This document shows positions 7,811-63,329 of a stretch of DNA of 64,000 nucleotides, piece after piece. This DNA is from an uncultured Rhodospirillaceae bacterium (GTDB lineage Bacteria; Pseudomonadota; Alphaproteobacteria; Rhodospirillales; Casp-alpha2). Each line of letters opens with the position of its first letter. Position 1 is the first letter of the stretch. The DNA is taken from contig CAXGUG010000003.1 of NCBI GenBank assembly GCA_964012715.1, positions 5,163 through 69,162 of the forward strand, read 5' to 3'. The notes beneath the pieces are model-generated. The model ran no database searches. It was not told where the DNA came from and was given only the letters and a program-made list of their open reading frames with translations. A program made the position numbers and the translations under genes.

Positions 7811-9729
7811 TGCGCGCCCCACATGACTTCGTAGACCGGGACCGGTTTGTCGATCCCCTTCATGTCGTAGTTCCCGGCATCGCGGAACTGAATCGAATGC
7901 CCGGTCACCAGATCGCGCACCGACTGGGTGACGAAGATCTGGTCGGCTTCGGCCTTGTCGCAGACACGGGCCGAAAGCTGCACCGTGGTGCCGAAGAAAT
8001 CGTCTTCTTCCTCGACCGCGGCGCCCGCGTTCAATCCGATCCGAACCTTGACCGGCAGGCTGCCCTGCGTTCCGTTGTGCTTGGCCAGTTCCTGCTGCAT
8101 CACCATGGTCGATGCCACCGCGTTGGCGGCGTTGGAGAACACGGCCATGATGCCGTCGCCGGTGTGTTTGACCTCGCGCCCATGGTAGGCGGCCAGGGCA
8201 TTGCGGACGATGGCGTTGTGCGTGCGGACAACCTGTTGCGCGCCGACGTCGCCCAATTCCTGGGTCATCGCGGTCGATCCGACCAAGTCGGTGAACATCA
8301 CGATCACCACGCCTTGGGCCGATGCCTTGGCTGCCTTATTGGACGTAAAGCCCTCAAGTATCGACGGCAGGTCCGCGAACGCCCGTTCATCGCCATCGAT
8401 GAACCGCTGCATGGCGGACCGTCCGGCATCGATCATGGCGCGGCTTTTGCTGTCCTTTTCATAATCGGCAAACTTGTCGCAGAACGGCCCCGCCATGGCT
8501 TTCTTGGTGCCGATGGCGACGATCGCTTCCGTGATCATGCCGTTGCGTTTGGCGCCGTCCAGGCCGCTGTGTTTTGCCAGGGTGTCGCCGGCCCCGGCGA
8601 GATAAAGATTCAAACCGAACTTGCCCAGCTTGTCCAATTTCGACAATTGACCCCGGATTGCCGATAAGGCGTGTTCCAGGAACTTGAGCATCTGTTTGCG
8701 GGGCTCCGCCGGAACGCTGTCGGGCGGGTAGTCCATGCCCGACGCGGTCGAGGCGGGCTTGCCGGAATTGCTTTCGTCGGCCTCGCTTTCGGCGACCTCT
8801 TCCTCGAGGGCTCCCATCGGATCGCTGCCGATAGCGTCATCGCGCCAGTCGCCCAATCCGGAATCATAGGCGTCGTCGTCGTCATCGTCGTCGCCTTTCT
8901 TCTGAGAGTCCTGAAGGAACTGGGTCAGGACGTCCAGGTCGCCTTCTTTGAGGATGATTTTGGCGGTGATCAGCCCGGCCAGAATGAATGACAGCAGGTA
9001 GCCGGCCGGAATAATGCCGGCCATTAGGAATTGGGGGATTTCGACGCCCGATTTAGCCATGGCCTTCATGGCGATTTCCACCGGGAAGCGCGAAATAAAG
9101 GACACCGCGGCGGCAATGATGAAAACCGTCAACAGGCGCGTGACCACCGCCGCCATGGGGGTGGTCGGCTTTTCGGCATCGGCCTCGCGGGCGGCGGCTT
9201 CTTGCGCCGCCTTCTTGATCGATTGGGCCCCGCCGATTGCGCCTGCCGCTTCCAAATGGCGTTTGGCTAATTTCTTATACGCAGCGCTGGCGCCTTCCGT
9301 CCCGCCTTTGCGTTTCTTTTTCCTTTTTTTCCCGGGGGGGCCGTTTCCGGCGATTGCCGTCGTGCCGCCGTCGTCGCCGCCGGAGCCTTTTGAGCCCGCA
9401 GGGGCGCCGGCCGATGGCGCCGCGCCACCGCCGAGATCCGCATCTTCGCCGCCGCCACCGCCGCCGCCACCCCGGTTAGGCACCTTGCCGCCGCGGGGAA
9501 TGCCGGTCATCCAGGCAATCGTTTCTTGAGGGGCGCGACCATCGGGATAGGTGCGCACGTTCATCAAGCGCACGGCCTGCCATTTGGCCTGATCGTCGGC
9601 TTCGTGGGCCGCACTGATGGCCTCGAACTCGTCGATTTCCGGCCATTCACCCTGGTTTACCCAGGCTCCGTTAGGCTCCCGGCAATACAGGACGAAGGTT
9701 GTTTTATATACGACCCGAGCTGCGGCCAA
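7792..9729 (-). CDS. membrane-anchored class III adenylate/guanylate cyclase with an atypical N-terminal region
   Basis: The C-terminal approximately 190 aa carry the cyclase motifs VMFTDLVGST, VKHTGDGIMAVF, RIGLNAG and FGTTVQLSARV. Upstream of these are 2-3 hydrophobic helices, a Gly8 run, KKRKKKRK and an Asp7 run. A TTG start is preceded by AGGAGCGAGG. Confidence 0.85.
   Translation of the reverse strand: MAAARVVYKTTFVLYCREPNGAWVNQGEWPEIDEFEAISAAHEADDQAKWQAVRLMNVRTYPDGRAPQETIAWMTGIPRGGKVPNRGGGGGGGGEDADLGGGAAPSAGAPAGSKGSGGDDGGTTAIAGNGPPGKKRKKKRKGGTEGASAAYKKLAKRHLEAAGAIGGAQSIKKAAQEAAAREADAEKPTTPMAAVVTRLLTVFIIAAAVSFISRFPVEIAMKAMAKSGVEIPQFLMAGIIPAGYLLSFILAGLITAKIILKEGDLDVLTQFLQDSQKKGDDDDDDDAYDSGLGDWRDDAIGSDPMGALEEEVAESEADESNSGKPASTASGMDYPPDSVPAEPRKQMLKFLEHALSAIRGQLSKLDKLGKFGLNLYLAGAGDTLAKHSGLDGAKRNGMITEAIVAIGTKKAMAGPFCDKFADYEKDSKSRAMIDAGRSAMQRFIDGDERAFADLPSILEGFTSNKAAKASAQGVVIVMFTDLVGSTAMTQELGDVGAQQVVRTHNAIVRNALAAYHGREVKHTGDGIMAVFSNAANAVASTMVMQQELAKHNGTQGSLPVKVRIGLNAGAAVEEEDDFFGTTVQLSARVCDKAEADQIFVTQSVRDLVTGHSIQFRDAGNYDMKGIDKPVPVYEVMWGAQMKAAG
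8872..8892 (-). repeat. GAC/GAT codon run encoding Asp7 inside the cyclase gene
   Basis: The plus strand reads gtcgtcgtcgtcatcgtcgtc. It is in frame and therefore a coding low-complexity run. Confidence 0.9.
9448..9471 (-). repeat. GGY codon run encoding Gly8 inside the cyclase gene
   Basis: The plus strand reads gccgccgccaccgccgccgccacc. It is in frame. Confidence 0.9.
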
Positions 9730-9891
9730 GGACCTCGCTCCTACCCCATCTGTCGTTTTTCATTTCGCCTGATACGGCAAAATAGTTGATAAAAAAGCAA
9801 TTCTCGACAAACCAATTAACGAGTATGGCACTAGTTACATGCAAATTGTACTCAATATCAGGTTTGAGCCAACCATTTCTCGGATTTTGGT

Positions 9892-9911
9892 CCGTTTATA
9901 AGAATAAACGG
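9892..9911 (+). promoter_or_regulatory. perfect 8-bp inverted repeat CCGTTTAT-AAGA-ATAAACGG immediately upstream of the S8 peptidase RBS
   Basis: Read directly from the sequence. It sits in an AT-rich divergent intergenic region, 2 nt before GGAG (9914-9917) and 13 nt before the ATG at 9925. Confidence 0.4.
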
Positions 9912-9924
9912 ATGGAGCCGCCCA

Positions 9925-11253
9925 ATGGATGTGAAGACCCTTATATTCAGAGCCGCCACAATCGTCACCCTGACCAGTGGTATAGGGAGCGGCGTTTTAG
10001 TATGGGGCGTACCGCAATCCCGGGCGGCTGACGGCCCCGATGTTCTGGGCACGATGAAAGCCTTATGCGCTCTTAAGCCGACGGATACCGATGGGCTGCG
10101 CCAAGCGCTTCCGGATGGCCGGATGCTGGAGGCGCGAATGGATGGTCCCAAGGGAAATCCAATGCGCAGCCTTCATCGTGTCTTGATGCCCAACGACGGC
10201 GAATGGGTGATCAGCCGCATTTTCCCCATGGGTCGCGTGCTCCGATTCAGTCTGGAATGGCACGAGCCTGTGGCGGGGGGCACGGCACGCCCGCAGATTG
10301 CCTTGATCGCCGGAAGGGATTGCGTTCCGACCGAAGGGCGACGCCTGTCCTATGGGGTGGATGGCCGTCCGATCAGGCTGGAGGTTCTGTCCTCCGACTT
10401 GAAATCGGTGGTGATGAGTGAAGTCATCGATCCGCCTGTGCCGGATTTGGCTGTGCCGCCTGCTGACGCGGTCCGGGTCGCCCTGATCGATACGGGCGTC
10501 AATTATACTCTTCCCCTGTATCGGGGGCGATTGGGGGTGTCGAAAGACGGGGCCTTGGCCGGATATGATTTCTGGGACATGGATGCGCGACCGTTCGATA
10601 TCGATACGACGCGCTCGCCCTTTTTCCCGCTTCATCACGGCACGGCGGTCTCGTCGATCATCCTGCGCGAAGCGCCCAAGGCCGTCGTGCTGCCCTATCG
10701 TTATCCCCGCAACGCAATGGCGCGGTTCGCGGACCTTGTCGCCCGCGCTGATGCCGACGGGGCGCTGGTCGTCAACATGGCCATGGGCTCGAACCGGCGC
10801 TCCGACTGGGCGGCGTTCGCGCAGGCGGCCAAGGACCGCCCCCATATGTTGTTCATCGTTTCCGCCGGAAACGACGGCCGCGACCTGGATCAGGTGCCTG
10901 TCTATCCGGCGGCGCTGGACCTGGAGAATATCCTGGTCGTTACGTCGTCCGATGCCGAGGGGCGGCTGGCCCGCGGCTCCAACTGGGGCGCGGTTGTCGT
11001 CGATGTCATGGCGCCAGGGGAACAGGTCGCGGTGATCGATCACCGGGGGGCCGCCGGGAAGGCGTCGGGGTCGAGCTTCGCCGTGCCCCGGGTCGCGGCC
11101 CTGGCGGCGCGGTTGCTGGCCAAGCATCCGGAATGGCGCGGGCCGGAATTGAAAGCGGCGATCGTCAAGCGCGCCCGCAAACCCTTCGGCCGCGACGTCT
11201 TGCCGTTACGCCACGGATGGATTCCCGATCCGACCGACGATTTCGAAGGCTGA
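9925..11253 (+). CDS. secreted S8 (subtilisin-like) serine peptidase with an uncharacterised approximately 170-aa N-terminal region
   Basis: The Asp/His/Ser triad contexts are VALIDTGVN, HHGTAVSSII and GSSFAVPRVAALAARLL. The N-terminus is hydrophobic and signal-like. Confidence 0.85.
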   Translation: MDVKTLIFRAATIVTLTSGIGSGVLVWGVPQSRAADGPDVLGTMKALCALKPTDTDGLRQALPDGRMLEARMDGPKGNPMRSLHRVLMPNDGEWVISRIFPMGRVLRFSLEWHEPVAGGTARPQIALIAGRDCVPTEGRRLSYGVDGRPIRLEVLSSDLKSVVMSEVIDPPVPDLAVPPADAVRVALIDTGVNYTLPLYRGRLGVSKDGALAGYDFWDMDARPFDIDTTRSPFFPLHHGTAVSSIILREAPKAVVLPYRYPRNAMARFADLVARADADGALVVNMAMGSNRRSDWAAFAQAAKDRPHMLFIVSAGNDGRDLDQVPVYPAALDLENILVVTSSDAEGRLARGSNWGAVVVDVMAPGEQVAVIDHRGAAGKASGSSFAVPRVAALAARLLAKHPEWRGPELKAAIVKRARKPFGRDVLPLRHGWIPDPTDDFEG

Positions 11254-11255
11254 GG

Positions 11256-12404
11256 TTACTTCGGCGCGCCGCCGCGACGCGGGGGCGGGGGTTGACGCAT
11301 GAACCGTTCGGCCACGGGCTTCAATTGCGGGTGGTGCTCAAGCAGCAAGGCATAGGCCTTTTGCGCCATCACGTCATTGCCGCTCCACCGACCGGCCTGA
11401 ATGGCGAGGCGCAGCACCTGCGGATCGCTGGGCAGGGCCGCCATCAATTTTTCCAGATGCGGGATTTCGTCTTCGTAACGCTGTGCCACGTGTAGCGTCA
11501 CGGCAAGGGACAGGCGGGTGTTCAGGGCGTTGGGGTCCTGGTCGATGGATCGGTTGAACAAATCCAGGGCGGGTTCCAGGAACTGTTGCCGCCCCAGGAC
11601 CTGTCCCGCGTCGTCGAATAATTGTCGGTTCCCCGTGGCCAAACATTGCTTGTAGAGGAAATCCACGTTCGATGGCGCCATCCTCTGGCTGGTGGCGTGG
11701 GTCGCGTCCAAGGCTTCGGCGCATTTGCGATACGTCAGCCCGATACGCCCGCTTTCCAACGCCTGCTCCGGTCCGGACTGGGTTTTCAGCTTGGCGATCT
11801 CGGACACGGGGATGGCTTCGTTCCGGCCTTCGCCGCCGGACGCGATGATCGCCACCAATTCGCCTGCGCGGTCGAACAGGCCCCCGCCCGAATTTCCGGG
11901 TTGGCTGCGCGCCGAATGATGAACGCGGGCCAGCGGCTTGTCCTCCGGTGGTATGGCCACGACCCGGCCGGGAAGATAGGCGCGGATCGCGCCCCGCCCG
12001 ACGTCGGCGCCAACCGTATAAACCTGTTGATCGACCGCCGCCGTTCCCAGGATCAGTTGGTGGGGCACGACCAAGCCGTCGACCCGAAGCAGGATCAGGT
12101 CGCCCGGGTACGAGGTCGGCACGACCTCGGCGATGCGTTGGCTGCCGTCGTCCATGAACAGTTGGGCGCGGGGGTTGTCGGCGACGACATGTCGGTTCGT
12201 GACCAGCAGGCCCGGTTCGATCAGCACGGCGCTGCCGACAGGGTCGAACGACGAGATGGCGAACACTCGGGCGGAAGATTGGCAAACCGCCGTCGGCGCC
12301 TTGCAGCCGGGCGCGGGGTGTTGCGCCTTGGCCGGTGCGCCAAGTAGTGCCGCCAAAATCAGAAGAATCAGCGGAAGGCGGATCATCTGAAAGCCCTGAA
12401 ACAT
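11256..12404 (-). CDS. secreted trypsin-like (S1/S1C) serine protease fused to TPR-like repeats
   Basis: A signal peptide (LILLILAALLGAPAKAQ) is followed by LVTNRHVV (His), DLILLRV (Asp) and GNSGGGLFD (Ser). The helical C-terminal half is TPR-like. An alternative start lies at 12386. Confidence 0.8.
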   Translation of the reverse strand: MFQGFQMIRLPLILLILAALLGAPAKAQHPAPGCKAPTAVCQSSARVFAISSFDPVGSAVLIEPGLLVTNRHVVADNPRAQLFMDDGSQRIAEVVPTSYPGDLILLRVDGLVVPHQLILGTAAVDQQVYTVGADVGRGAIRAYLPGRVVAIPPEDKPLARVHHSARSQPGNSGGGLFDRAGELVAIIASGGEGRNEAIPVSEIAKLKTQSGPEQALESGRIGLTYRKCAEALDATHATSQRMAPSNVDFLYKQCLATGNRQLFDDAGQVLGRQQFLEPALDLFNRSIDQDPNALNTRLSLAVTLHVAQRYEDEIPHLEKLMAALPSDPQVLRLAIQAGRWSGNDVMAQKAYALLLEHHPQLKPVAERFMRQPPPPRRGGAPK

Positions 12405-49834: not shown

Positions 49835-50290
49835 ATGCGGGCATTGTTGCAACGTGTCACCGAGGCGTCGGTCGCGGTGGTCGAAGACGCAGGGGATGCC
49901 GAAACGGTCGGGGCCATCGGCCCTGGATTGGTCGTGCTGGTCTGCGCCGAGCCCGGGGACACGGAAGATACCGTTGCCTACTTCGCGCGCAAGGTCGCGG
50001 CGATGCGGATTTTCGAAGACGCCGAAGGCAAGGTGAACCTGTCCGTCCGCGATGTCGGCGGTAGCGCCTTGGTGGTCAGTCAGTTCACCCTGGCCGCCGA
50101 TTGGAAAAAGGGCAACCGGCCGGGATTTTCCGGCGCCGCCGATCCGCAAACGGCGGAGCGCCTTTATCTGATGTTCGCGGACCGCTTGCGGGACGAAGGC
50201 CTGAGCGTCGAGACCGGCCGCTTCCGCGCCCATATGCGGGTCAGCCTGATCAACGATGGCCCATTCACGATCTGGATGGACTCCGACTGA
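49835..50290 (+). CDS. dtd: D-aminoacyl-tRNA deacylase
   Basis: MRALLQRVTEASVAV, VVSQFTL, KGNRPGFS and INDGPFT are classic Dtd motifs. Confidence 0.9.
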   Translation: MRALLQRVTEASVAVVEDAGDAETVGAIGPGLVVLVCAEPGDTEDTVAYFARKVAAMRIFEDAEGKVNLSVRDVGGSALVVSQFTLAADWKKGNRPGFSGAADPQTAERLYLMFADRLRDEGLSVETGRFRAHMRVSLINDGPFTIWMDSD

Positions 50291-50311
50291 ACCCGCGACA
50301 TCGAACCGGAC

Positions 50312-50350
50312 AAAAGAAAACGCCGTGACCGGGGCAGGTCACGGCGTTTC
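50312..50350 (-). terminator. rho-independent terminator for the EF-hand gene (ACGCCGTGACC-GGGGCA-GGTCACGGCGT)
   Basis: Perfect 11-bp stem. On the minus strand it is followed by TTTCTTTTG. It may also stop dtd transcription. Confidence 0.8.
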
Positions 50351-50398
50351 CATGGTCACCGCCGACGGGGCTTGTCGGCGGTGGCGGGGAGGGAGAAG

Positions 50399-50908
50399 TT
50401 AACGGCGCGGGCCGCATTCTTCGCGGTCGTGGCGCTCATGGCCCTTGCCGGGACCGTCACCGCGCATGCCGTGGTGCGGCCGGCCTTCGCCGCGTTCGAT
50501 CTCGCCGTCGTCATTGCGGTCCATGCGGGCCATCATGCGGTCGGTTTTCTTGGCGATTTCGCCTTCGGTGACCTGGGCGTCGCCGTCGCTGTCGAGCCGC
50601 TGGAACATGCGGACCATGCGCTGATGCATGATCTCGTTGAACAGGCCCTGGAACTCGTCGAGCGACAGTTGGCCGTCCTTGTTCTTGTCGTAGTCGGTGA
50701 TCGACTTCTTGGTCGCCGAGGCGATTTCGTCCTTGGTGATCTTGCCGTCTTTGTTGGCGTCGAAGCGTTCGAACAACATTTCGCCGTGGCCGCCGCCGCG
50801 TTTGCCGTAGTCGGCGTGGACGGCGAAGGCCGTGGTGCCGAGCATGACGGCGGTCAGGGCGCCCAAGACGATTTTGCTGCGGGTGGTGATGCGGGATTTA
50901 CGTGCCAT
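50399..50908 (-). CDS. secreted EF-hand calcium-binding protein (four EF loops)
   Basis: A signal peptide is followed by the loops DANKDGKITKDE, DKNKDGQLSLDE, DSDGDAQVTEGE and DRNDDGEIERGE. The C-terminal tail is His-rich. AAGGAG RBS. Confidence 0.85.
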   Translation of the reverse strand: MARKSRITTRSKIVLGALTAVMLGTTAFAVHADYGKRGGGHGEMLFERFDANKDGKITKDEIASATKKSITDYDKNKDGQLSLDEFQGLFNEIMHQRMVRMFQRLDSDGDAQVTEGEIAKKTDRMMARMDRNDDGEIERGEGRPHHGMRGDGPGKGHERHDREECGPRR

Positions 50909-50920
50909 GAGAAGGCTCCT

Positions 50921-50945
50921 TGTTTCAGTGCAATGTTTCGGTGCA
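50921..50945. promoter_or_regulatory. adjacent direct repeat TGTTTCAGTGCA / TGTTTCGGTGCA (13-bp period) upstream of the EF-hand gene
   Basis: Read directly from the sequence. The units match at 11 of 12 positions. The repeat lies 13-37 nt upstream of the EF-hand ATG, in the region shared with the divergent response-regulator gene. Confidence 0.4.
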
Positions 50946-51121
50946 TTTGCGATGCCCTGATAAAAGCCTTCAAACGTCGCTAAAATATGTCGAGAAAGCA
51001 GGAGTTTGTCGCAACTCGTGCCGCCGGGCGGGATTGATACAATCGGTTACAAATTTTTGTCCGCCTGGGTTTCCGGCTCCGGCATATTGAGGATCAGGAA
51101 TACTGACGAGACCGGCTGAAG

Positions 51122-51850
51122 ATGACTGACAGCGAACATATTCTGGTCGTCGACGACCACCCGGACATCCGCGATGCCCTGGCCCGCTATTTGAAAGAAC
51201 ACGGCTACCGGGTGACCACCGCCGACCGCGCCCAATCGGCGCGCCAGACGTTGGAGACCAGTGCTATCGATCTTGTCGTCCTGGACATCATGATGCCGGG
51301 CGAGGACGGCTTGTCGCTGTGCCGGGACCTGCGGGCGACGACGTCGCTTCCGGTCATTCTGCTGACGGCCATGGCCGAGGACACGGACCGCATCATCGGT
51401 CTGGAAATGGGCGCCGACGATTATGTGACCAAGCCGTTCAATCCGCGCGAACTGCTGGCCCGGGTCAAGGCCGTCCTGCGCCGCACCGGGGCCATGCCCA
51501 AGGCCGGCGGCAGCGAGCCGGCGGGCACCCTTTATCGTTTCGCCGGATGGACCTTCGATCCCGGCGCGCAATCCCTGACCGGCCCCGACGGCGTGGCGAC
51601 GCAGTTGTCGACCGGCGAGAGTTTGTTGCTGGGCGTATTCGTGCGCCATCCGGGCCGGGTTCTCAACCGCGATCAGTTGTTGGATCTGACGCGGGGCCGG
51701 TCGGCGCAGCTGTTCGACCGCGCCATCGACAATCAGGTCAGCCGCCTGCGCAAGAAGATCGAACAGGACGCGCGCAATCCGGAATTCATCAAGACCCATT
51801 GGGGCGGCGGCTACAGCTTCGCCGTCGCGGTCGAGGTTGCCGAGCCATGA
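51122..51850 (+). CDS. OmpR family response regulator
   Basis: The REC domain has ILVVDDH, DLVVLDIMMPGEDG and YVTKPF. The winged-helix output has LLLGVFVRHPGRVLNRDQLL and WGGGYSF. Confidence 0.9.
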   Translation: MTDSEHILVVDDHPDIRDALARYLKEHGYRVTTADRAQSARQTLETSAIDLVVLDIMMPGEDGLSLCRDLRATTSLPVILLTAMAEDTDRIIGLEMGADDYVTKPFNPRELLARVKAVLRRTGAMPKAGGSEPAGTLYRFAGWTFDPGAQSLTGPDGVATQLSTGESLLLGVFVRHPGRVLNRDQLLDLTRGRSAQLFDRAIDNQVSRLRKKIEQDARNPEFIKTHWGGGYSFAVAVEVAEP

Positions 51851-53310
51851 TGAAGTATCTGTGGCCGCGATCGCTGGCGGGGCAATTGGTCCTGTCGCTG
51901 TTGGCTGCCATCCTGGCGGCGCAACTCGCGGGCTTTCTTATCTTCGCGCAGGACCGGCGCGACGCGATCATCGGCGCCCGGCATGAATTGGTGTTGCTGC
52001 GCGCGGCCTCGTTGGTTCAGACGCTGAACCACCTGCCGAAGCGTCGGGACGACGCCTTGGTCCAGACGGTGTTGACCGCCGCGACCTCGGGCTTGGTGCG
52101 GTTTCGGATTGCGCCGGACAGCCCGCTGCCCGCCGATGCGCCGGAATACCGGGACAACGACCTCGCCCGGTCGCTGGCGTCCCGCCTGGGCGATGCCGGA
52201 GACCGGCCGGTTCTGGTCAAGGTCGCGGAAGACGGTGGATACGGCATTCTTCGTCCCCTGGACTTTTTCCATCGAAAAATGGACGAGCGCCGCCGCGACG
52301 ATCACGAGCGCCACGGCGATCATGATGACGATAAGCACGAGGACAAACATGGTGCGTCCCGCTATCGCTTCCCGATCGGCCTGACCCTGGCCGTGGCCCT
52401 GAACGACGGCGGCTGGCTGGTCGGCGAACTGGCGGCCCCGGTGCCGCGCGGTTGGGGGACACGGACGCTGACCGGTGTGTTGCTGCTGGTGTTCGCCGTT
52501 TCCGTGGTTGGGGTGTTGGTGGTCCGTCGCCTGACCCGGCCCCTGGGCGACCTGGCCGACGCCGCCGATACATTGGGCCGGGGCGGCGTGCCGCCCAAGC
52601 TGGCGCCCTCCGGTCCCGGCGAAATCCGCCGTACCATCGCCGCCTTCAACACCATGAGCGAACGGTTGCATCGATTCGTCGCTGACCGAACCCGGATGCT
52701 GGCCGCGATCAGTCACGATTTGCGTTCGCCGCTGACCTCCCTGCGTTTGCGCGCGGAGTTCATCACCGACGATGCCGACAACAAGCAGAAGATTCTGAAT
52801 ATCCTGGACGAGATGGAACGCATCACCGAAGCCACGCTGGCGTTCGCCAGGGACGACATGGCCGGTGGGGCGCTCGAAGACGCGGATGTCGCACAGCTAT
52901 GCAGCGACGTCGTCGAGGAATTGAGTGATCAAGGATTCGACGCCAGCTGCGAGACAAGCGGGGCGGCGATATTGAACTGTCAGCCGACGGCGCTGAAACG
53001 GGCAATCCGGAACCTGGCCGAGAACGCGGCCAAATACGGCGGGCAGGCGCGGCTTGGCGTTCTCAAATCTGCGGATGCATTGACGATCACGGTCGAGGAC
53101 GATGGCCCCGGTATCCCCGAAGCGGACTTCGATCAGGTGTTCGAGCCGTTCACCCGCCTGGAAACCTCGCGCAGTCAGGAAACGGGGGGCGTCGGCCTGG
53201 GTATGGCGATCGCCCGCAATATCGTGCGCGCCCATGGGGGCGATATCAGCCTTCAGAACCTGACGCCGCGCGGATTGCGGGTGCAGGTCACACTGCCGTT
53301 GCCGCATTAG
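51847..53310 (+). CDS. sensor histidine kinase (2 TM, HAMP, HisKA, HATPase_c) with a His/Asp-rich periplasmic loop
   Basis: The ATG overlaps the regulator stop (ATGA). The H-box is ISHDLRSPL, the N-box is NLAENAAKYG, and the G-boxes are DDGPGIP and GGVGLGMAI. The loop segment DERRRDDHERHGDHDDDKHEDKHG is encoded at about 52270-52353. Confidence 0.9.
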   Translation: MMKYLWPRSLAGQLVLSLLAAILAAQLAGFLIFAQDRRDAIIGARHELVLLRAASLVQTLNHLPKRRDDALVQTVLTAATSGLVRFRIAPDSPLPADAPEYRDNDLARSLASRLGDAGDRPVLVKVAEDGGYGILRPLDFFHRKMDERRRDDHERHGDHDDDKHEDKHGASRYRFPIGLTLAVALNDGGWLVGELAAPVPRGWGTRTLTGVLLLVFAVSVVGVLVVRRLTRPLGDLADAADTLGRGGVPPKLAPSGPGEIRRTIAAFNTMSERLHRFVADRTRMLAAISHDLRSPLTSLRLRAEFITDDADNKQKILNILDEMERITEATLAFARDDMAGGALEDADVAQLCSDVVEELSDQGFDASCETSGAAILNCQPTALKRAIRNLAENAAKYGGQARLGVLKSADALTITVEDDGPGIPEADFDQVFEPFTRLETSRSQETGGVGLGMAIARNIVRAHGGDISLQNLTPRGLRVQVTLPLPH

Positions 53311-53326
53311 CAACAGGCTTATAACT

Positions 53327-53355
53327 AAAGCCTTGTTGGCGAAGGCTTTTATTTT
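53327..53355 (+). terminator. weak intrinsic terminator (AAAGCCTT-GTTGGCG-AAGGCTTT followed by TATTTT) overlapping an alternative upstream hairpin
   Basis: Read directly from the sequence. The 5' arm is shared with the 3' arm of a 10-bp hairpin at 53311-53338 (CAACAGGCTT...AAGCCTTGTTG). Confidence 0.4.
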
Positions 53356-53445
53356 AAGGTTATACTTCTCTCGTGCTTTTAACGCCGGATAGGGGCCGGC
53401 GAGGGAATGGGTGTCCGAAACGGCCACCCGCAGAGGAGGTAGCCC

Positions 53446-54666
53446 GTGGACAACCTGGACCCGGACGGGAGCGGCGATCCCGGCGGCGAAATCGGTACGA
53501 TTCACGACCTGATGGAGACGCTCAACCATTGGGTGCCGGGGGAATCCGACTTCAATCATCTGCTGCTGGTGTCGTTCACCACGCTGGGCGAGGCCGATCA
53601 GCGGGAAGGGGCCCTGCAGGCGCTGGAAGGCGCTTTTCTCAGCTTCGCCCATAACCGCGGCGGTCATGTCTTCCAACTGTCGGACCTGGACGCGGCGATT
53701 CTGATCAAGCTGGCCGACTTCAACCGCATGGAAACCATGATGGACCTGAAGGTCGATATCATGCGGGTGATCCAGCACCATCTGCCGGAACATTTCTCCA
53801 AGATCGATCAGGCCCGCCTGATCCGCCCGATCGATCTGGCAACGCGTCTGGACACAGCCAAGCGGTTTTTGGAAGCCTATGGCGATCGCCGCCGTGAAAC
53901 CGGCGTCAACGAGGAAGGCGAACGGCCGCTCAGCCTGCAGGACATTCAAAAGCTGCGTGCCGCCCTGCAAAAGCTGGGGCCGCGCGAATTCGGCCGCCGC
54001 TATATCCGCTCGCAGACGGCGGCGCGCATTTTGCCGGGTCAGGCCGCGAAACCGGCGATGACGGAGTATTACGTCGGCGTCGCTCAGTTGAAGCAATCGA
54101 TCCTGCGTGGCGTCAACATCAGCGGCGCTGGGAACGTGTTCAACCAACTGACCCTGACCTTCGATCGGGCGTTGTTGTATTGCATCGGCGCCGTTGCCGG
54201 GGATCGGTCAAAGACGTCGCTGAACATGAACGTCGAAACCGTCTTCACCAATGCCTTCGAACACTATGTGCGGGACGGCGGCGAGGCCGGCCTGAACGGT
54301 GTGGTCATCGAATTCCGCCAGGACAACATGTTCCAGCAGTTCGGCAATTTTCAGACGGCTTGCGACCTGATCAAGAAGCGCGGCGGGATGGTCGCGGTCG
54401 ACAACGTCCCGCCCGAAAGCCTGGGGGTGGTCAATTTGCACCGCCTGAATGTGCGCATGGCCAAATTGATGTGGCGCGCCGACGCGGAAGAAATTTTCCT
54501 GAACGCCAAGGATGACATCAAGATGATGCAGGACAGCGGGACGGTGATGGTTATGGCCCATGTCGATGACCAACAGGCGATCGATATCGGCCAGAGCCTG
54601 GGTATTACCCTGTTCCAGGGATATCACGTGGACAAACTACTTTCCGGCGGCAAGACCGCAACCTGA
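53446..54666 (+). CDS. degenerate GGDEF-like / EAL-like protein, paralog 1
   Basis: GTG start after a GAGGAGG RBS. The C-terminal half follows the EAL motif order with substitutions (EYYVGV, LNMNVE, VIEFRQ, VAVDNVPPESLG, AKLMW, MAHVDD, FQGYHV). The N-terminal half has a GGDEF-like layout (HLLLVSFTTLG ... GGHVFQLSDLDAAILI) without the GGDEF motif itself. Confidence 0.8.
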   Translation: MDNLDPDGSGDPGGEIGTIHDLMETLNHWVPGESDFNHLLLVSFTTLGEADQREGALQALEGAFLSFAHNRGGHVFQLSDLDAAILIKLADFNRMETMMDLKVDIMRVIQHHLPEHFSKIDQARLIRPIDLATRLDTAKRFLEAYGDRRRETGVNEEGERPLSLQDIQKLRAALQKLGPREFGRRYIRSQTAARILPGQAAKPAMTEYYVGVAQLKQSILRGVNISGAGNVFNQLTLTFDRALLYCIGAVAGDRSKTSLNMNVETVFTNAFEHYVRDGGEAGLNGVVIEFRQDNMFQQFGNFQTACDLIKKRGGMVAVDNVPPESLGVVNLHRLNVRMAKLMWRADAEEIFLNAKDDIKMMQDSGTVMVMAHVDDQQAIDIGQSLGITLFQGYHVDKLLSGGKTAT

Positions 54667-54709
54667 CGGCATCCCGGTTGGGCCGGGCGGAGAATCTGGG
54701 GAACGGACG

Positions 54710-55897
54710 ATGGCATTCGGGTCTTCACCTATGGCGGGCGACGCCGCCGACCTGCTGCGTAAATTGCGCGCCATGGGCGGGCGGAAAGCGGATGTGAACA
54801 GCTTGTTGCTGGTCGATCTGTCGGATTTGGGGCTGCCCGAAGACGACGACTATTTGTGGAACGAGATCGAGGAAATCCACGCCCGCATCGCCCGGGTGCG
54901 CGGTGGCGAGGCCTATCGCCTGTCGCCGACGAATATCGCGCTGATCGCCAATCTGACCGAAATGAACAGGATGGAAGTTCCCCAGGAACTGAAGATGCAT
55001 CTGTTCAAAATTCTGCGCGAGGAAGCGCCGGACAAGGTGACGGAGGTCGATCAATCCAAGATCGTCCGCAGCATCGATCTGACGACCCAGATGGCCGGGG
55101 CGATCCGCTTCCTGGAAGCCTTCGAGGAACGGGCCAAGGAGCAGGGCGTGATCGCCGGGGCCGATGGCCTGCGCAGCATCAACCTGTCTGATATTCAGTC
55201 CGTCCGGGCCCTTCACACCAAGGTCGGCGACAAGGCTTTCGTCGATACCTACGTTCAGGGCCAGACCATCGCCTTGATCACCGAGGGCAAACCGCCGGTG
55301 CCGATCGCCCGGGAATACTATGTCCGCATGGATTTGTTGCGGAGCGATGCGCTGCAAGATGTGGCGATCCATGAATCCGATCCCCTGTTCCCGCAGTTGA
55401 CCATGGTGTTGGACAGTCTGGTCCTGGGGGCCTATCGCCTGTTCAATCCGAAAGGCTCCAAATGTGCGGTCAATCTGACCTTGGAGACGGTCGGCAACAC
55501 GGCCTATCAAAAATTCATAGCGGCGGCGGGTGAAAGCCGATTGGGGAACGTGATCGTCGAGATCCGGCTGGCCGATATCATACGCGACCTGCGTAAATAC
55601 GAGGCGGCCCAGGCCGCCGTTCGATCCCTTGGCGGAACGGTCGCGATCGATATCATCGATCCGGCGGCGCTAGGGGTGCTCAACCTGGCGGGCTTCAAGG
55701 CCAATATCGCCAAAGTTTTGTGGCGCGATTCCGGTGCGGAAACTCTGGCGCGCTACCGCTCGGTGATCAAACAGGCCCAGGATGCAGGCTGTATCGTGGT
55801 ATTGTGCCGCGTCGATTCAGAGCTCGGTTTGCGAGTCGGGCGCGAGGTTGGCATCACCGCATTCCAGGGCTTGCATGTCGAAGGCATGATGTTGTGA
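54710..55897 (+). CDS. degenerate GGDEF-like / EAL-like protein, paralog 2
   Basis: The ATG at 54710 begins MAFGSS. The same block order appears as in paralog 1 (SLLLVDLSDLG, EAYRLSPTNIALI, REYYVRM, VNLTLE, VIVEIRL, VAIDIIDPAALG, AKVLW, LCRVDS, FQGLHV). Confidence 0.8.
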   Translation: MAFGSSPMAGDAADLLRKLRAMGGRKADVNSLLLVDLSDLGLPEDDDYLWNEIEEIHARIARVRGGEAYRLSPTNIALIANLTEMNRMEVPQELKMHLFKILREEAPDKVTEVDQSKIVRSIDLTTQMAGAIRFLEAFEERAKEQGVIAGADGLRSINLSDIQSVRALHTKVGDKAFVDTYVQGQTIALITEGKPPVPIAREYYVRMDLLRSDALQDVAIHESDPLFPQLTMVLDSLVLGAYRLFNPKGSKCAVNLTLETVGNTAYQKFIAAAGESRLGNVIVEIRLADIIRDLRKYEAAQAAVRSLGGTVAIDIIDPAALGVLNLAGFKANIAKVLWRDSGAETLARYRSVIKQAQDAGCIVVLCRVDSELGLRVGREVGITAFQGLHVEGMML

Positions 55898-56024
55898 TGC
55901 CTTGGTAAATTAACTCTGTATTATCAACTCGTTGATTAGGGTGAGCAAAATACGGGAATGGCTCTTGCCGTGTCCGGGGCCGAAGGGTCAAAATCCAGAC
56001 TATTAACAGCGGATAGTTAGAAGC

Positions 56025-57203
56025 ATGGCGGAAACAAGCTCCGGTGGTGGCGATCATCTCAAGCTGCTGACGCGCCTGAAGCATTGGAAGGGTGGCGCGG
56101 AAGAGCCTAACCACCTGATTTTGGTTAGTTTTTCTACCCTCGGCATGACCGAGGAAGAAGACAAGCTGCTGCGTAAGAAGACGGATGAATCCTACGAACG
56201 TTCGCACGAGCGGCGTGGCGCGGAAGTCTATCGTCTGACCAACACAGACACCGCCTTGTTGATGAAATTGAATGACTACAACCAGATGGAGTGGACCTCG
56301 GAGCTTAAGGTCGACCTGATTCGCGTCATTCAGCAGAATTTCCCCGAATATTTCGGCCAAATCGACCAGTCGCGGATGCTGCGGATCATCAATCTGCAAG
56401 GGCGTCTGCAGAACGCGATCAAGTTTTTGGAAGCCTTCGATGATCGCGCCAAGGAAGCCGGTGTCGGCACCGGCGATTCCCGGCCGCTGCGCGAAAGCGA
56501 TATCCAGGTCGTGCGCGACGGCATGCGCAAGATGGGCAAGAAGACGTTCACCGACAACTTCATCCGCTCCCAGGCGACGGTGCTGATCACGCCGGGCAAG
56601 CCGCCCATGCCGGTGATGCGGGAGTACTTCATCTCGGTCGAAATGATCCGCCAACACATTCTGACCAATGTCGATTTCCGCGGCGCGGGGCTGGTGTTCC
56701 AGCATCTGACGCGGTCGCTCGATCAGATGCTGATCGAATGTTTCGACGAGGTAAATCCGGACCGGGCCAAGGCCTCCCTGAACCTCAACGTCGAAACCGT
56801 GTTTACCCATTCGTTCCAAAACCTGTTGGAGCGGGGCGAAAAGTCGCTCGGCAATCTGGTTTTGGAATTCCGCGCCGAAAACATCTTGCAGAACTTCGAC
56901 CAGTTTCTGACGGCGTCGGAACTGATCCGCTCGCGCGGCGGCACCATCGCGATCGACGCGATCATCCCGGAAAGCTTGGGCGTGATCGATCTGCCGCGTC
57001 TGGGGGCCAAGCTGGCCAAGGTATTCTGGCGCCCGGGAACGGAAGCGGTTCTCCCGCAGTTCAAGGAAGCCATTCAAAGCCTGCAGCAACGGGGCACGGT
57101 CCTGGTTCTGGCCCGCGTCGATGACGAACTGGGCATCAAGACGGGTCATGCTTGCGGCATCACCATGTTCCAGGGCTTTTACATCGACGACATGGTGTCT
57201 TGA
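56025..57203 (+). CDS. degenerate GGDEF-like / EAL-like protein, paralog 3
   Basis: The same block order appears as in paralog 1 (HLILVSFSTLG, AEVYRLTNTDTALL, REYFISV, LNLNVE, LVLEFRA, IAIDAIIPESLG, AKVFW, LARVDD, FQGFYI). Confidence 0.8.
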   Translation: MAETSSGGGDHLKLLTRLKHWKGGAEEPNHLILVSFSTLGMTEEEDKLLRKKTDESYERSHERRGAEVYRLTNTDTALLMKLNDYNQMEWTSELKVDLIRVIQQNFPEYFGQIDQSRMLRIINLQGRLQNAIKFLEAFDDRAKEAGVGTGDSRPLRESDIQVVRDGMRKMGKKTFTDNFIRSQATVLITPGKPPMPVMREYFISVEMIRQHILTNVDFRGAGLVFQHLTRSLDQMLIECFDEVNPDRAKASLNLNVETVFTHSFQNLLERGEKSLGNLVLEFRAENILQNFDQFLTASELIRSRGGTIAIDAIIPESLGVIDLPRLGAKLAKVFWRPGTEAVLPQFKEAIQSLQQRGTVLVLARVDDELGIKTGHACGITMFQGFYIDDMVS

Positions 57204-57229
57204 TCGCGCCTTTCTGATACGGTCGCAGG

Positions 57230-58042
57230 ATGCGTATCTGGACCCGAGTTTTCCCGCTTTTCGTCTGTGTCCTGTTTGTCGGTCTGGCTGCCGGTCCGAC
57301 CGCGCGGGCGCAGGATGTTTCCAACGTCGATTTGTTGAAGGCCTTCGCCGGGGTCGCCCTTGGCTCCGAATACGAAAAGCGCGAACCACGTATCCTGAAA
57401 TGGGAAAAGCCGGTCAATGCCGCGATCATCGGCAAGGGTTATCCGCCTTTGTTCGAGCAATTGGTGGTCAAGCAGTTGGCCGATCTCGCCAAGGAAACGA
57501 ACCATCCGGTGCAACTGGTCTATTCCGAGACCATGCGCCGGGAAAAACGCCTGCCCGCCAACGTTTCGAAAATTCCCATCAACATGCTGATCTTCTACGC
57601 GCCGAAGGCGGACCTTCCGGCCATGGTCGAGAAGCATACCAAGGGCGCGTTCAAGGCTCCTGACGTGGCGCGGATGAGCAACCTGGGTTTCTGTCACGGC
57701 CGGTTGCAGATCTTCAAATCCGGCGCGTTGAAGTTCGTTTACGCCGCCGTCCCGGCCGAAATCACGACCCAGGTCGTCTACGGCAATACCCGCGTAGATC
57801 CCAAGATTTTCCTGCGCGCCTGCGTGACCGAGGAAATCACCCAGCTGATGGGCCTGATCAACGACGTCAAAGGGCTGAAGATCTCGATCTTTTCCGACGA
57901 CAGCGCGCATGTCGATCTGACCGAGGCCGATCGTTGGATGCTACGCCTGCTGTACGACCCCAGGGTCAAGGCCGGCATGAAGCCGGACGAAGTCCTGCCC
58001 CTGGTGGCACGCATGCTGCTCGAAAAACGCCCCGGCAAATAG
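57230..58042 (+). CDS. secreted DUF2927-like protein
   Basis: A signal peptide (LFVCVLFVGLAAGPTARAQD) is present. The C-terminal blocks CVTEEITQLMGLINDV and LTEADRWMLRLLYDPRVKAGM resemble DUF2927, an assignment from memory. The gene starts 26 nt after paralog 3. Confidence 0.7.
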   Translation: MRIWTRVFPLFVCVLFVGLAAGPTARAQDVSNVDLLKAFAGVALGSEYEKREPRILKWEKPVNAAIIGKGYPPLFEQLVVKQLADLAKETNHPVQLVYSETMRREKRLPANVSKIPINMLIFYAPKADLPAMVEKHTKGAFKAPDVARMSNLGFCHGRLQIFKSGALKFVYAAVPAEITTQVVYGNTRVDPKIFLRACVTEEITQLMGLINDVKGLKISIFSDDSAHVDLTEADRWMLRLLYDPRVKAGMKPDEVLPLVARMLLEKRPGK

Positions 58043-58068
58043 CCCCGCCGGGCGGCGTCAGGTTGCCC

Positions 58069-58182
58069 CTAGAACGACCAGGGTAGTTCCCGCATATCGA
58101 ACATCGCCTCGGCGATCAGGACCGTTATGGTCAACGGTACCGCCACAAGAAGGGCGAACAACGGGGCTTTCAAGGTTTCCAT
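58069..58182 (-). CDS. putative 37-aa hydrophobic small protein
   Basis: METLKAPLFALLVAVPLTITVLIAEAMFDMRELPWSF contains one TM helix. A strong AAGGAGA RBS sits 6 nt upstream of the ATG. No family was recognised. Confidence 0.35.
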   Translation of the reverse strand: METLKAPLFALLVAVPLTITVLIAEAMFDMRELPWSF

Positions 58183-58260
58183 GGTGGTCTCCTTTCTCCG
58201 TCCAAGCGGAGAGAAGAAAAGCACCGAACCTGGGCCGCCCGAGGGCTGGAATGGGGCAAT

Positions 58261-58293
58261 CCAGGGGCAGGAAACCGCGGTTTCTCGCCCCTG
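58261..58293. repeat. 33-nt near-perfect palindrome CCAGGGG-CAG-GAAACCG|CGGTTTC-TCG-CCCCTGG
   Basis: Read directly from the sequence. It lies between the FAH-family gene stop and the small ORF. Confidence 0.6.
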
Positions 58294-58304
58294 GTTTAAG
58301 CAGA

Positions 58305-58991
58305 TTAGACGACCTTGATGGTCAGTTCGTCCACGCCATCGACGATACCCTTCAGGACGTCGCCGCGATGGACCGCGCCGACGCCGGCGGGCGTGCCGGT
58401 CAGGATCAGGTCGCCCGGGGCCAGGGTGAACAGGCCCGACAGGTATTCGATCATTTCCGGAATTTTCCAGATCATCTGGTTCAGGTCGCCGTCTTGGCGA
58501 ACCTCGCCGTTGCATTCCAGCCAGATGCGGCCCTCGGACGGATGCCCGACTTCGGACGCGGGATGGATCGCCGTGCAGGGGGCGGACAGTTCGAACGCCT
58601 TGCCGGTGTCCCAGGGGCGGCCCATTTTCTTGGCTGCGCCCTGCAGGTCACGGCGCGTCATGTCGAGCGCCACGGCATAGCCGTAGACATGGTCCAGGGC
58701 CTTGGCAGCGGGGATGTCGGTGCCGCCTTCCTTCAGGCCGACCACCAGTTCCAGTTCCCAATGCACGTCGTCGCTGGCCACCGGATAGGGCCAGTCGCCG
58801 CCGCCGACAAACAGGTTGTCGGGGCATTTCTGGAAAAAGAACGGCGGTTCGCGGTTCGGGTCGTGACCCATTTCGATCGCGTGGTCGGCGTAATTGCGCC
58901 CGACGCAGTAGACGCGACGCACGGGGAACTGATCGTCCGTACCGGCGACCGGAAGGTACGCCTGGGGCGGTTGGGGAATGACATAAGCCAT
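58305..58991 (-). CDS. fumarylacetoacetate hydrolase (FAH) family protein
   Basis: MAYVIPQPP...RRVYCVGRNYADHAIEMG, ELELVVGL, DMTRRDLQ and PGDLILTGTPAGVG are typical of the FAH/YcgM-type family. The upstream in-frame extension to 59471 is rejected. Confidence 0.85.
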   Translation of the reverse strand: MAYVIPQPPQAYLPVAGTDDQFPVRRVYCVGRNYADHAIEMGHDPNREPPFFFQKCPDNLFVGGGDWPYPVASDDVHWELELVVGLKEGGTDIPAAKALDHVYGYAVALDMTRRDLQGAAKKMGRPWDTGKAFELSAPCTAIHPASEVGHPSEGRIWLECNGEVRQDGDLNQMIWKIPEMIEYLSGLFTLAPGDLILTGTPAGVGAVHRGDVLKGIVDGVDELTIKVV

Positions 58992-61987: not shown

Positions 61988-62189
61988 AAATTATCCACTA
62001 GAAGAGTTGTAGTATAAAACTCGCCTCTAAATGGTTATTTTCTAATGTATTCTCGTATTGTCCTATGTGATTTTTTCTGGTTAGGATGAAAACAACAGGC
62101 GCGCAATAACGACGCCGATGGGGTTTATCGAGGTTTTATTTTAATAGGTTGAATGGTGGTGAGAGGAGGACTCCCGCCACTATACGGTG

Positions 62190-63329
62190 ATGGGCGTATA
62201 TAACCTTGAACGATTGACCTTCCTGCTTGTCGACGACAATCGGTTCGTCGTGAAGATCCTTCAGGACGTGCTGAAGACGCTCGGCGCGGGACAGGTCATC
62301 ACCGCTGAAAACGGGGTCGAAGCCATCGAGTTTCTCGGCGGCTACCACGGGCCTTACGGCTGCCCTGTCGATGTGATCATCTCGGATCTCGTGATGGCGC
62401 CGATCGACGGACACCTGCTGTTGAAATGGGTCCGTCAGGGCAAGGATTCTCCCAACCGCTTCATGCCGTTCATCATGATGTCGGGTGCCGCCGATACCGA
62501 ACATGTAGAAAAAGCGCGCGACGGCGGGGCCAACGAATTCCTGGCAAAACCGTTTTCCGCCCAGACGGTCTGCGACCGCATTCTCGAAGTCATCGATTTT
62601 CCGCGTCAGTTCGTCGCCACGCGCGACTATTTCGGCCCGGATCGGCATCGGCGCAACGCCCCACCGGGCACGCAGAACCGTCGCCGAATTACGGAAAAGG
62701 AAGCGACCATCGTCTATTCGTCGGATCGCGTGCGAAAGCCAAAGAACCCGGGCGACGTGTACCTATTCCGCTTGCCCAACAAGCTGAAGGAAAAGGTCGG
62801 GGGGCTGGGCATGCACCCGCCGGGTGAACTGCCGACGCGCCATCTGCAGGCCGCGGACGAACAGCTTCAACGCAAGGGGTTGGAATTCCACGATTGGGCG
62901 CTTGGCTATCTTGCGACGTTGTCGAGCATTTGCGAGCGCGCCATGAAGCAATCGGAAGAACACCGTGCGCGCCACTTCAAGAACATCAACCTGCTGGCCC
63001 ACGAATTGCGCGGGCAGGGCGGCACCTTCGGGTATCCGATCATCACCAGCGTCGGGGAAATGCTCTACAAGACGACCCTGGCGCCTTGTCCGACCGAAGA
63101 TCGCGCGGTCAAGGTCATCAAGGCCCATATCGACACCATGCGCTCGGTATTCCGCGACAAGGTCAAGGGCGACGGCGGCGAAATCGGTGTCGAGTTGATG
63201 AAGGACCTGCGCAAGGCAATCCGCAAGTATATGACGGACGCTGCCCTCGACCCCGCGCCGGAAGAAATAGAGCCTGAGGTGGAGCCGAACGGCGCCGCAC
63301 GGAACTTCCGTCCCAGTCAGATCGACTAA
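62190..63329 (+). CDS. response regulator receiver fused to an Hpt-like domain
   Basis: The REC domain has LLVDDNRFV, VIISDLVMAPIDG and FLAKPF. The C-terminal four-helix-like region carries LAHELRGQGGTFGYP (HxxKG-type phosphotransfer motif, His codon at 63000-63002). A GTG at 62187 is also possible. Confidence 0.8.
   Translation: MGVYNLERLTFLLVDDNRFVVKILQDVLKTLGAGQVITAENGVEAIEFLGGYHGPYGCPVDVIISDLVMAPIDGHLLLKWVRQGKDSPNRFMPFIMMSGAADTEHVEKARDGGANEFLAKPFSAQTVCDRILEVIDFPRQFVATRDYFGPDRHRRNAPPGTQNRRRITEKEATIVYSSDRVRKPKNPGDVYLFRLPNKLKEKVGGLGMHPPGELPTRHLQAADEQLQRKGLEFHDWALGYLATLSSICERAMKQSEEHRARHFKNINLLAHELRGQGGTFGYPIITSVGEMLYKTTLAPCPTEDRAVKVIKAHIDTMRSVFRDKVKGDGGEIGVELMKDLRKAIRKYMTDAALDPAPEEIEPEVEPNGAARNFRPSQID

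Follow-up and report, generated by a model that had tools for sequence, protein, structure and literature searches.

Proteins whose EAL domain has degenerated are a recognised route from an enzyme to a second-messenger receptor or scaffold. To our knowledge only a handful of them have been studied (LapD, FimX, CsrD, YdiV and BluF), almost all from Gammaproteobacteria. Here we describe three tandem paralogous genes, P1, P2 and P3, followed by a gene for a secreted protein of the DUF2927 family (Table 1), in a 64,000-nt stretch of an uncultured Rhodospirillaceae bacterium (contig CAXGUG010000003.1), hereafter the window. The C-terminal halves of P1–P3 are diverged EAL domains that conserved-residue analysis predicts to be catalytically dead, and their N-terminal halves are a domain of their own (the N-domain). 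The three proteins belong to a small, undescribed and narrowly distributed subfamily of the well-known non-catalytic EAL-domain proteins, referred to below as the family, which offers a compact, soluble and sensor-less example from abundant marine Alphaproteobacteria. That they act as non-catalytic sensors or adaptors for a nucleotide, cyclic di-GMP (c-di-GMP) or a related ligand, and signal by protein contacts, is a proposition that we judge, from residue conservation, to be evenly balanced. Our confidence in the identity of the proteins and in their evolutionary history is high, and moderate in ligand binding.

GGDEF-EAL proteins in which both domains have degenerated are taken to be c-di-GMP receptors (PMC3032553), and the EAL domain of LapD (PDB 3PJW, 6PWJ, 6PWK) is the one that receives the nucleotide in that protein (PMC3032553). 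LapD resembles P1–P3 in having two domains of similar size and in lacking catalysis, as predicted for P1–P3, and its GGDEF-EAL module was the best structural match of the full-length P3 model, which supports the comparison with LapD made in the original prediction. However, LapD sits in the membrane, carries a periplasmic domain, HAMP and an S helix, and has the protease LapG as partner, whereas P1–P3 have neither a transmembrane (TM) segment nor HAMP nor LapG. In LapD the EAL Glu is lost (KVL) and the following Arg kept; in the family the Glu would be kept (EYF/EYY) and the Arg is mostly absent. Furthermore, the N-lobe of LapD is recognisably GGDEF (RGGEF) and the N-domain is not. The degenerate EAL domain of FimX (PDB 3HV8, 4FOK) is a high-affinity c-di-GMP receptor that signals via protein contacts and is matched by P3 at a Foldseek E of ~1e-7, but FimX has REC-PAS inputs, a recognisable GGDEF domain, and PilZ and PilB as partners. 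CsrD, YdiV/RflP and BluF of E. coli exemplify inactive EAL-type domains reused as regulators without c-di-GMP binding, and the family keeps far more of the conserved pocket positions than they do. CsrD, doubly degenerate as well, is in addition membrane-anchored, and its degenerate GGDEF is still matched by a GGDEF profile (E 3e-13), unlike the N-domain. Finally, the class III EAL domains of the Römling classification share with the family the missing EGVE base, a degenerate loop 6 and a predicted lack of phosphodiesterase (PDE) activity (PMC12900916). The family departs from that class in that its replacements R283, W335-R336 and R364 are strongly conserved and in its fused N-domain, which is found in the family only.

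The assignment of the C-terminal halves comes from profile comparison and from structure prediction. The Pfam EAL profile (PF00563) scored P1, P2 and P3 at 29.6, 24.8 and 22.1 bits, all under the gathering score of 31.3, and matched 50 of 58 broad family members at E<=0.01, the best at 1.4e-12; in turn, the family profile matched BlrP1 among PDB sequences. Against six E. coli EAL domains, the family C-terminal alignment reached a probability of 94% in hhalign (E 9e-8), and control comparisons of the same alignment with GGDEF domains gave nothing. The GGDEF/EAL reference consisted of 12 annotated E. coli K-12 genes; a reference alignment from the fetched Rhodospirillales loci was dropped because what its motifs picked up proved spurious, being GGT, DAO/GCV_T and binding proteins. 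The AlphaFold2 model of P3 has a predicted local distance difference test (pLDDT) score of 89 overall and of 92–97 in the C-terminal half. With it Foldseek retrieved 98 solved structures at E<=0.001, and the 50 best listed are all EAL-domain proteins. The LapD GGDEF-EAL module (6PWK, 3PJW) came first, at E ~7e-12 over some 420–430 aligned columns, followed by MorA, PA0575, RbdA, DosP, BlrP1 and FimX, and the matches of the EAL-type barrel to solved EAL structures range from 1e-7 to 7e-12. Structure prediction for P3 returned the EAL barrel that had been expected; the GGDEF matches of the separate N-domain model were weak and not significant (E>=0.012).

Individual residues were mapped through HMMER and hhalign alignments, with columns counted over 103 family sequences and numbered as in P3. 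An appreciable part of the canonical EAL pocket is retained: the EAL Asn is N253 (103/103), the first Glu of ExxE is E281 (102/103), the first Asp of DDFG is D311 (103/103), the EAL Lys is K332 (103/103, in the HMMER register; hhalign shifts it by three residues) and QG is Q383-G384 (103/103). This is the answer that the family alignment gives to the question of which pocket positions are conserved; E257, too, is present in 103 of 103 sequences. The catalytic positions have fared differently. At position 363, that of the EGVE base, there is Ala in 64 sequences, Ile in 16, Cys in 14 and Ser in 7, and Glu in none of the 103; the second Asp of DDFG is replaced by A, Q, N or I, and loop 6, canonically DFG(T/A)GYSS, reads D-A-I-(F/I)-P-E. 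The T and E after the first Glu of ExxE have become R283 (102/103) and Q or A, the Asp of KxD has become F, H or M and is followed by W335 (103/103) and R336 (97/103), the Gly of EGVE (position 364) is Arg in 90 sequences or His in 13, and the second Glu of EGVE is D366 in 102 of 103. The degenerate EAL domain claimed by the original prediction is therefore upheld by profile, structure and the missing base alike. Its account of the EGVE motif was right as to the loss of the base, but one residue off in register, since the aligned stretch is A-[R/H]-V-D and HVDD does not lie on EGVE.

Because the lost catalytic residues have been replaced by equally conserved new ones, these alignments show a pocket that has been remodelled rather than decayed, and they point to a selected change of pocket chemistry. 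In the P3 model the conserved residues follow one another along the predicted strands of the barrel, an arrangement shared with canonical EAL domains, and Arg283, Trp335/Arg336 and Arg364 would adjoin the lost catalytic positions, as far as strand topology alone can place them in the pocket. The two N-terminal strands of the prediction carry Q183 and the invariant E200 (of EYF/EYY) at the places where a QP Gln and an EAL Glu would be looked for; E200 would then correspond to the EAL Glu. An EAL domain that lacks the EGVE base is classed as PDE-inactive (PMC12900916).

The N-domain is more difficult to place. Modelled alone (pLDDT 85), it is predicted to fold as beta1-alpha1-beta2-beta3-alpha2-beta4 followed by three helices, which would make it a ferredoxin/palm-like core. 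The original prediction took it for a GGDEF fold stripped of its motifs; such an origin is possible but unproven. Pfam GGDEF (PF00990) matched none of the 58 family members, and P1–P3 gave no match to it at E<=1; neither the GG(D/E)EF nor the DxLT motif is present. Foldseek returned nothing for the N-domain model at E<=0.001; its best matches, at E 0.012–0.2, comprise GGDEF domains (PA2567, SadC, LapD, PA0575), the Cas10 palm, adenylyl cyclase, a Thg1-like protein and IS200-type HUH transposases. Among 1.84 billion representatives the N-domain profile picked out not one canonical GGDEF protein, and in PDB sequences it had no match. In hhalign, the comparison with ten E. coli GGDEF domains gave a probability of 3% (P 0.014), only slightly better than the negative controls (P 0.08–0.15); the short alignment runs in the register that would be expected, pairing beta1 with the DxD strand and the LSxxDxA hairpin with RxGGDEF. 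By comparison, the GGDEF domains of CsrD, PdeK, DosP and CdgI, degenerate as they are, were still picked up by the E. coli GGDEF profile. At full length the P3 model matched dual-domain LapD at 7.5e-12, as against 5.9e-7 for the LapD EAL domain alone. This gain would fit a GGDEF-like N-lobe, but the match to the BLUF-EAL protein BlrP1 likewise gains from the N-terminal domain of that protein. BLUF, ACT or another named domain was discarded as an identity for the N-domain, there being no Pfam or NCBIfam match to one and no BLUF among its top 50 Foldseek matches. At E<=0.001 the N-domain profile retrieved 102 representative proteins (clusters) among the 1.84 billion, and nearly all the full-length ones measure ~390–430 aa and carry the domain at the N-terminus; by these searches the N-domain is family-specific and always joined to this EAL variant. 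Between the two domains, the family members P0053 and P0056–P0059 have a linker insertion of 20–35 residues, rich in Ala, Pro, Lys and Glu, and in P3 the linker residues 143–151 are modelled as disordered by AlphaFold2.

The paralogy of the three genes, the starting point of the original prediction, is plain: BLASTP gave 33% identity between P1 and P2 (E 9e-71), 44% between P1 and P3 (E 8e-119) and 38% between P2 and P3 (E 9e-98), and the N- and C-terminal halves are each significantly paralogous on their own. Nearly all the motif blocks that had been quoted are present as written, namely NHLLLVSFTTLG, RFLEAY, P(E/A)(S/A)LGV, GIT.FQG, EYY/EYF, VDNV/IDII/IDAI, K(L/V)xW and HVDD/RVDS/RVDD. The departures are that P2 has VNLTLETVG where LN.NVETVF was expected, and that QGY occurs in P1 only, with QGL in P2 and QGF in P3. 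Independent gene calls on public contigs that encode an identical P3 (GCA_002433335.1 and Tara scaffolds) give the same lengths for all four open reading frames (ORFs), and these contigs assign the window to a marine Rhodospirillales MAG (metagenome-assembled genome). None of P1–P3 has a TM-like segment (maximum Kyte-Doolittle hydropathy over 19 residues, 1.0–1.6), and the Pfam scan found no domain in them besides EAL, HAMP included; the absence of TM, REC, PAS or any other recognisable input domain, asserted earlier from the translations, is thereby confirmed. P2 is the most diverged copy and the sole paralog with an Arg at the EALxR position (EYYVR). P3 is the slowest-evolving copy and the nearest to the single-copy relatives. 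Ratios of nonsynonymous to synonymous substitution (dN/dS) against orthologs were 0.16–0.27 for P1, 0.11–0.25 for P2, 0.07–0.10 for P3 and 0.18–0.31 for DUF2927, computed at dS ~0.7–1.7, that is, close to saturation. All three paralogs are retained under purifying selection.

How such a triplet arose can be followed in the relatives. A scan of one genome per species gave 79 loci, almost all labelled Rhodospirillales or related metagenome-assembled genomes (MAGs). The order EF-hand, regulator, kinase, P1, P2, P3, DUF2927 occurs in only 13 of them (L001–L012 and L014), whose P3 orthologs are 84–91% identical; as L001 and L014 are two contigs of MAG CAXAVJ01 that together make up one locus copy, these 13 loci represent 12 genomes, and the EF-hand gene lies upstream of regulator and kinase in L002–L012. 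The other 65 loci have one family copy each, with no intact DUF2927 gene inside 8 kb in any of them. L013, a complete chromosome and the nearest outgroup, has a single copy 64% identical to P3 and, downstream of it, a remnant of DUF2927 (9174–9545) that retains only the first ~108 residues, has lost the conserved C-terminal half and is apparently decayed. The single-copy genes share the chromosomal slot of the triplet, with transaldolase (TAL) and D-Tyr-tRNA deacylase (Dtd) genes upstream, and an FAA hydrolase, a 153-aa ORF, DUF1611 and an MR_MLE enzyme on the downstream side. In a neighbour-joining tree, the P1 clade, the P2 clade and the clade of P3 with L013 group apart from the single-copy sequences. 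The tree and the shared flanking genes show that the triplet originated by in-situ tandem duplication, from a gene of which most relatives have one copy. By the same comparison of gene orders, the two-component system and DUF2927 were acquired in the triplet lineage, and the EF-hand gene is part of the clade-specific insertion upstream of the triplet. In 32 single-copy loci (L013–L065) a gene for a protein of ~810 aa with the architecture DAO-FAO_M-GCV_T, a flavin adenine dinucleotide (FAD)-dependent oxidoreductase–aminomethyltransferase resembling dimethylglycine/sarcosine dehydrogenase, lies on the same strand ~70 bp upstream of the family gene. This dehydrogenase is the commonest neighbour of the family, and the EF-hand, regulator and kinase genes occupy its place in the clade of the window; its association with the family is probably plain synteny.

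Other neighbours of the single-copy relatives belong to partner-switching modules. A sensor PP2C phosphatase is encoded directly 3' of the family gene in 16 of the 65 single-copy loci, being of the dCache-HAMP-SpoIIE type in 15 (L062–L079, at ~9200–11500) and a GAF-SpoIIE-HATPase_c_2 protein, followed by a STAS gene, in L013 (10102–12312). A different set of 15 loci (L020–L051, at ~9160–9650) has a convergent STAS gene, 3–120 bp downstream in 14 and 583 bp in one. The PP2C and STAS loci belong to different clades of the family tree, so that an association with partner-switching modules arises repeatedly, and it provides a testable hypothesis for the output of the family. Neither the window nor the triplet loci contain PP2C or STAS genes. 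Direct contact of partner-switching or sigma/anti-sigma proteins with GGDEF/EAL proteins has been described for HsbA-HsbD (PMC5085249), SiaC-SiaD (PMC8457831) and RmdB with the sigma factor WhiG (PMC13232838). The likeness of these systems (HsbA-HsbD, SiaABCD, RmdB–WhiG) to the family is that its single-copy relatives adjoin PP2C phosphatases, an RsbW-like kinase domain and STAS. They differ in that HsbA-HsbD, SiaABCD and RmdB involve active cyclases or phosphodiesterases, whereas the family is predicted to be inactive, and in that the window locus is without PP2C and STAS.

Altogether, P1–P3 are soluble, cytoplasmic proteins composed of the N-domain, a helical linker and a diverged EAL barrel. 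They would not hydrolyse c-di-GMP, because the catalytic base and the second Asp are replaced in 103 of 103 sequences. Their conserved pocket would instead accommodate c-di-GMP or some related nucleotide, perhaps together with a single metal ion and with the conserved arginines in the charge role of the second metal. The signal would be handed on by contacts between proteins, as it is by LapD and FimX, probably from homo- or heterodimers, which may form via the EAL dimer interface. The paralogs would be diversified receptors, of which P3, being the most constrained copy and the closest to the outgroups, probably keeps the ancestral role. Several observations weigh against this account. The first ~70 EAL-like residues, which include EYF/EYY and Q183, have no significant hhalign alignment to canonical EAL domains. 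P1, P3 and most of the family lack the EALxR Arg, which lies at the centre of the c-di-GMP site of LapD (PMC3032553), and have Ser, Gly or Ala in its place; only the P2 clade has it. Furthermore, neither the window nor the fetched loci of the relatives yielded a GGDEF cyclase, and the production of c-di-GMP by this organism is assumed from general knowledge of Rhodospirillales.

The absence of that Arg from most members also speaks for nucleotide-independent adaptors, in which the EAL-like domain would be a protein-interaction module of the YdiV/RflP, BluF/YcgF or CsrD type with partners such as partner-switching components. The recurrence of PP2C (16/65) or STAS (15) genes beside the single-copy relatives points the same way, as do the precedents of RmdB (PMC13232838), HsbA-HsbD (PMC5085249) and SiaC-SiaD (PMC8457831). 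Yet invariant N253, E281, D311, K332 and Q383-G384, together with the conserved basic and aromatic replacements, are hard to explain for an unused pocket, and the triplet loci, like the window, are without such neighbours. Proteins such as YdiV, EAL-like but not binding c-di-GMP, have generally lost most of these pocket residues, in contrast to the family. We therefore treat pure adaptors as a tentative alternative, somewhat unlikely. The same retained residues may be turned to another argument, since N253, E281 and D311 align with three of the first-metal-site ligands, E200 would be the fourth, the Lys is kept, and a near-invariant acidic residue, D366, stands three positions after the lost base. 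P1–P3 might accordingly still be phosphodiesterases with a one-metal mechanism, with D366 or a K332-activated water in place of the EGVE base, or hydrolases of another nucleotide. We consider this very improbable, in view of the loss of the base and of the second Asp of DDFG throughout the 103 sequences, the replacement of loop 6 by D-A-I-F/I-P-E, the Arg at the Gly beside the base, and the classification of such domains as PDE-inactive (PMC12900916).

The original prediction went further and saw in the Ca/metal-type two-component system, the three paralogs and DUF2927 one dedicated, undescribed signalling system. The identical gene order in at least 12 species-level genomes at a synonymous divergence of ~0.7–1.7, the short spacers (43, 127 and 26 bp), the conserved cis element 5' of P1 and the purifying selection on all genes speak in its favour. 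The arrangement is restricted, however, to one narrow clade, and there the housekeeping genes on either side show the same degree of synteny. The co-occurrence of triplet and DUF2927 across genomes thus holds within the 12 genomes of that clade and in none of the 65 other loci, which are single-copy and without an intact DUF2927 within 8 kb, L013 having its truncated remnant. Distant DUF2927 proteins sit in unrelated contexts, there is a terminator-like hairpin between the kinase gene and P1, and the paralogs carry no membrane or export signal, in contrast to the exported DUF2927 protein. A single dedicated system is for these reasons rather improbable, and the two-component system and DUF2927 are better described as clade-specific neighbours than as obligatory partners, sharing at most regulation with the triplet. 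Equally doubtful in our view is a new class of nucleotide receptor, in which an Arg/Trp constellation would replace the second-metal site and the base (metal-independent binding or altered specificity), the N-domain would couple to PP2C/STAS, and the triplicate would form a hetero-oligomeric hub under the Ca/metal two-component system, co-expressed with DUF2927. Non-catalytic nucleotide sensors or adaptors remain our preferred reading of P1–P3; the triplet shows how such receptors diversify after duplication, and it opens no new category of system.

Table 1. Features of the locus, with positions in the window
Feature	Position	Strand	Description
EF-hand protein, secreted, 4 motifs	50399..50908	-	Pfam EF-hand_1/5/6/7; transcribed divergently with respect to the two-component genes
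OmpR-family response regulator (REC + Trans_reg_C)	51122..51850	+	Pfam 114 and 71 bits; kept in triplet loci
Membrane histidine kinase (HAMP-HisKA-HATPase_c)	51847..53310	+	Pfam; TM-like segment, Kyte-Doolittle 2.89
41-nt spacer element	53325..53365	+	8-bp hairpin AAAGCCTT/AAGGCTTT, T-run, TTATACT; candidate kinase-gene terminator and/or P1 promoter region
P1 (paralog 1)	53446..54666	+	406 aa, GTG start, GAGGAGG ribosome-binding site upstream; family-specific N-terminal domain and degenerate EAL-like domain
P2 (paralog 2)	54710..55897	+	395 aa, nested in a longer ORF starting at 54560; architecture as P1
P3 (paralog 3)	56025..57203	+	392 aa; N-domain ~1-145, helices 157-180, EAL-like barrel ~180-392
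DUF2927 protein, secreted	57230..58042	+	270 aa, 26 bp 3' of P3; Pfam PF11150 at 1e-35

The fourth gene was correctly recognised beforehand as a secreted DUF2927 protein: its Pfam match reaches 124 bits against a cut-off of 26.2, and it has an N-terminal hydrophobic signal ending in ARA-QD. Over 17 aligned DUF2927 proteins, C155, C198, E201-E202, Q205, G208, N211-D212 and LYDPR are invariant, giving the signature C..C..EExxQxxGxxND..LYDPR. The EEITQ block of this protein, earlier said to sit where a zincin HExxH would be, is no local degeneration of that motif; it belongs to C..EExxQxxGxxND, which is invariant in 17 of 17. The signature does resemble the HExxH..G..ND helix of zincins with the His replaced family-wide. 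A profile search detected no solved-structure relative of DUF2927, and the literature searched had nothing on DUF2927. An analogy with the LapD-LapG pair was dropped for this protein, the paralogs being without a membrane or periplasmic part. In a distant genome (L085, 5001–7177) two DUF2927 genes lie in tandem.

Regarding the spacers, the distance from the kinase gene to P1 is 136 bp, followed by 43 bp (P1–P2), 127 bp (P2–P3) and 26 bp (P3–DUF2927). The first of them contains the 41-nt element, with the hairpin AAAGCCTT-N7-AAGGCTTT and flanking TATAAC/GTTATA, which is unique in the window, occurs once per related locus and is near-invariant among these loci while its flanks diverge. By its composition it looks like a kinase-gene terminator, a P1 promoter or operator, or both, which speaks for transcription of the triplet apart from the kinase gene. 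A structured RNA in the spacers was set aside, as Rfam had no match at E<=1 over 50000–58600 and shuffled sequence folds about as well as the hairpin does (z -1.2). In the P2–P3 spacer (55880–56025) the short blocks TTATCAA, GTTCTTG and ATGAACCAAAAT are conserved among relatives and may represent an internal promoter for P3–DUF2927.

Upstream, the kinase has a His/Asp-rich stretch (DERRRDDHERHGDHDDDKHEDKHG) N-terminal to its HAMP domain, and this feature, together with the EF-hand neighbour, suggests sensing of Ca or another metal. The possibility of an anti-phage defence system was set aside, since PADLOC gave no match for any of the four proteins P1–P3 and DUF2927. Elsewhere in the window, positions 62187–63329 (+) encode a 380-aa protein with an N-terminal receiver domain and a C-terminal part of ~250 aa without a Pfam match. 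Between the DUF2927 and FAA hydrolase genes, at 58069–58182 (-), there is a 37-aa hydrophobic ORF (METLKAPLFALLVAVPLTITVLIAEAMFDMRELPWSF); gene calls on public contigs include it, and it has been conserved at several of the related loci.

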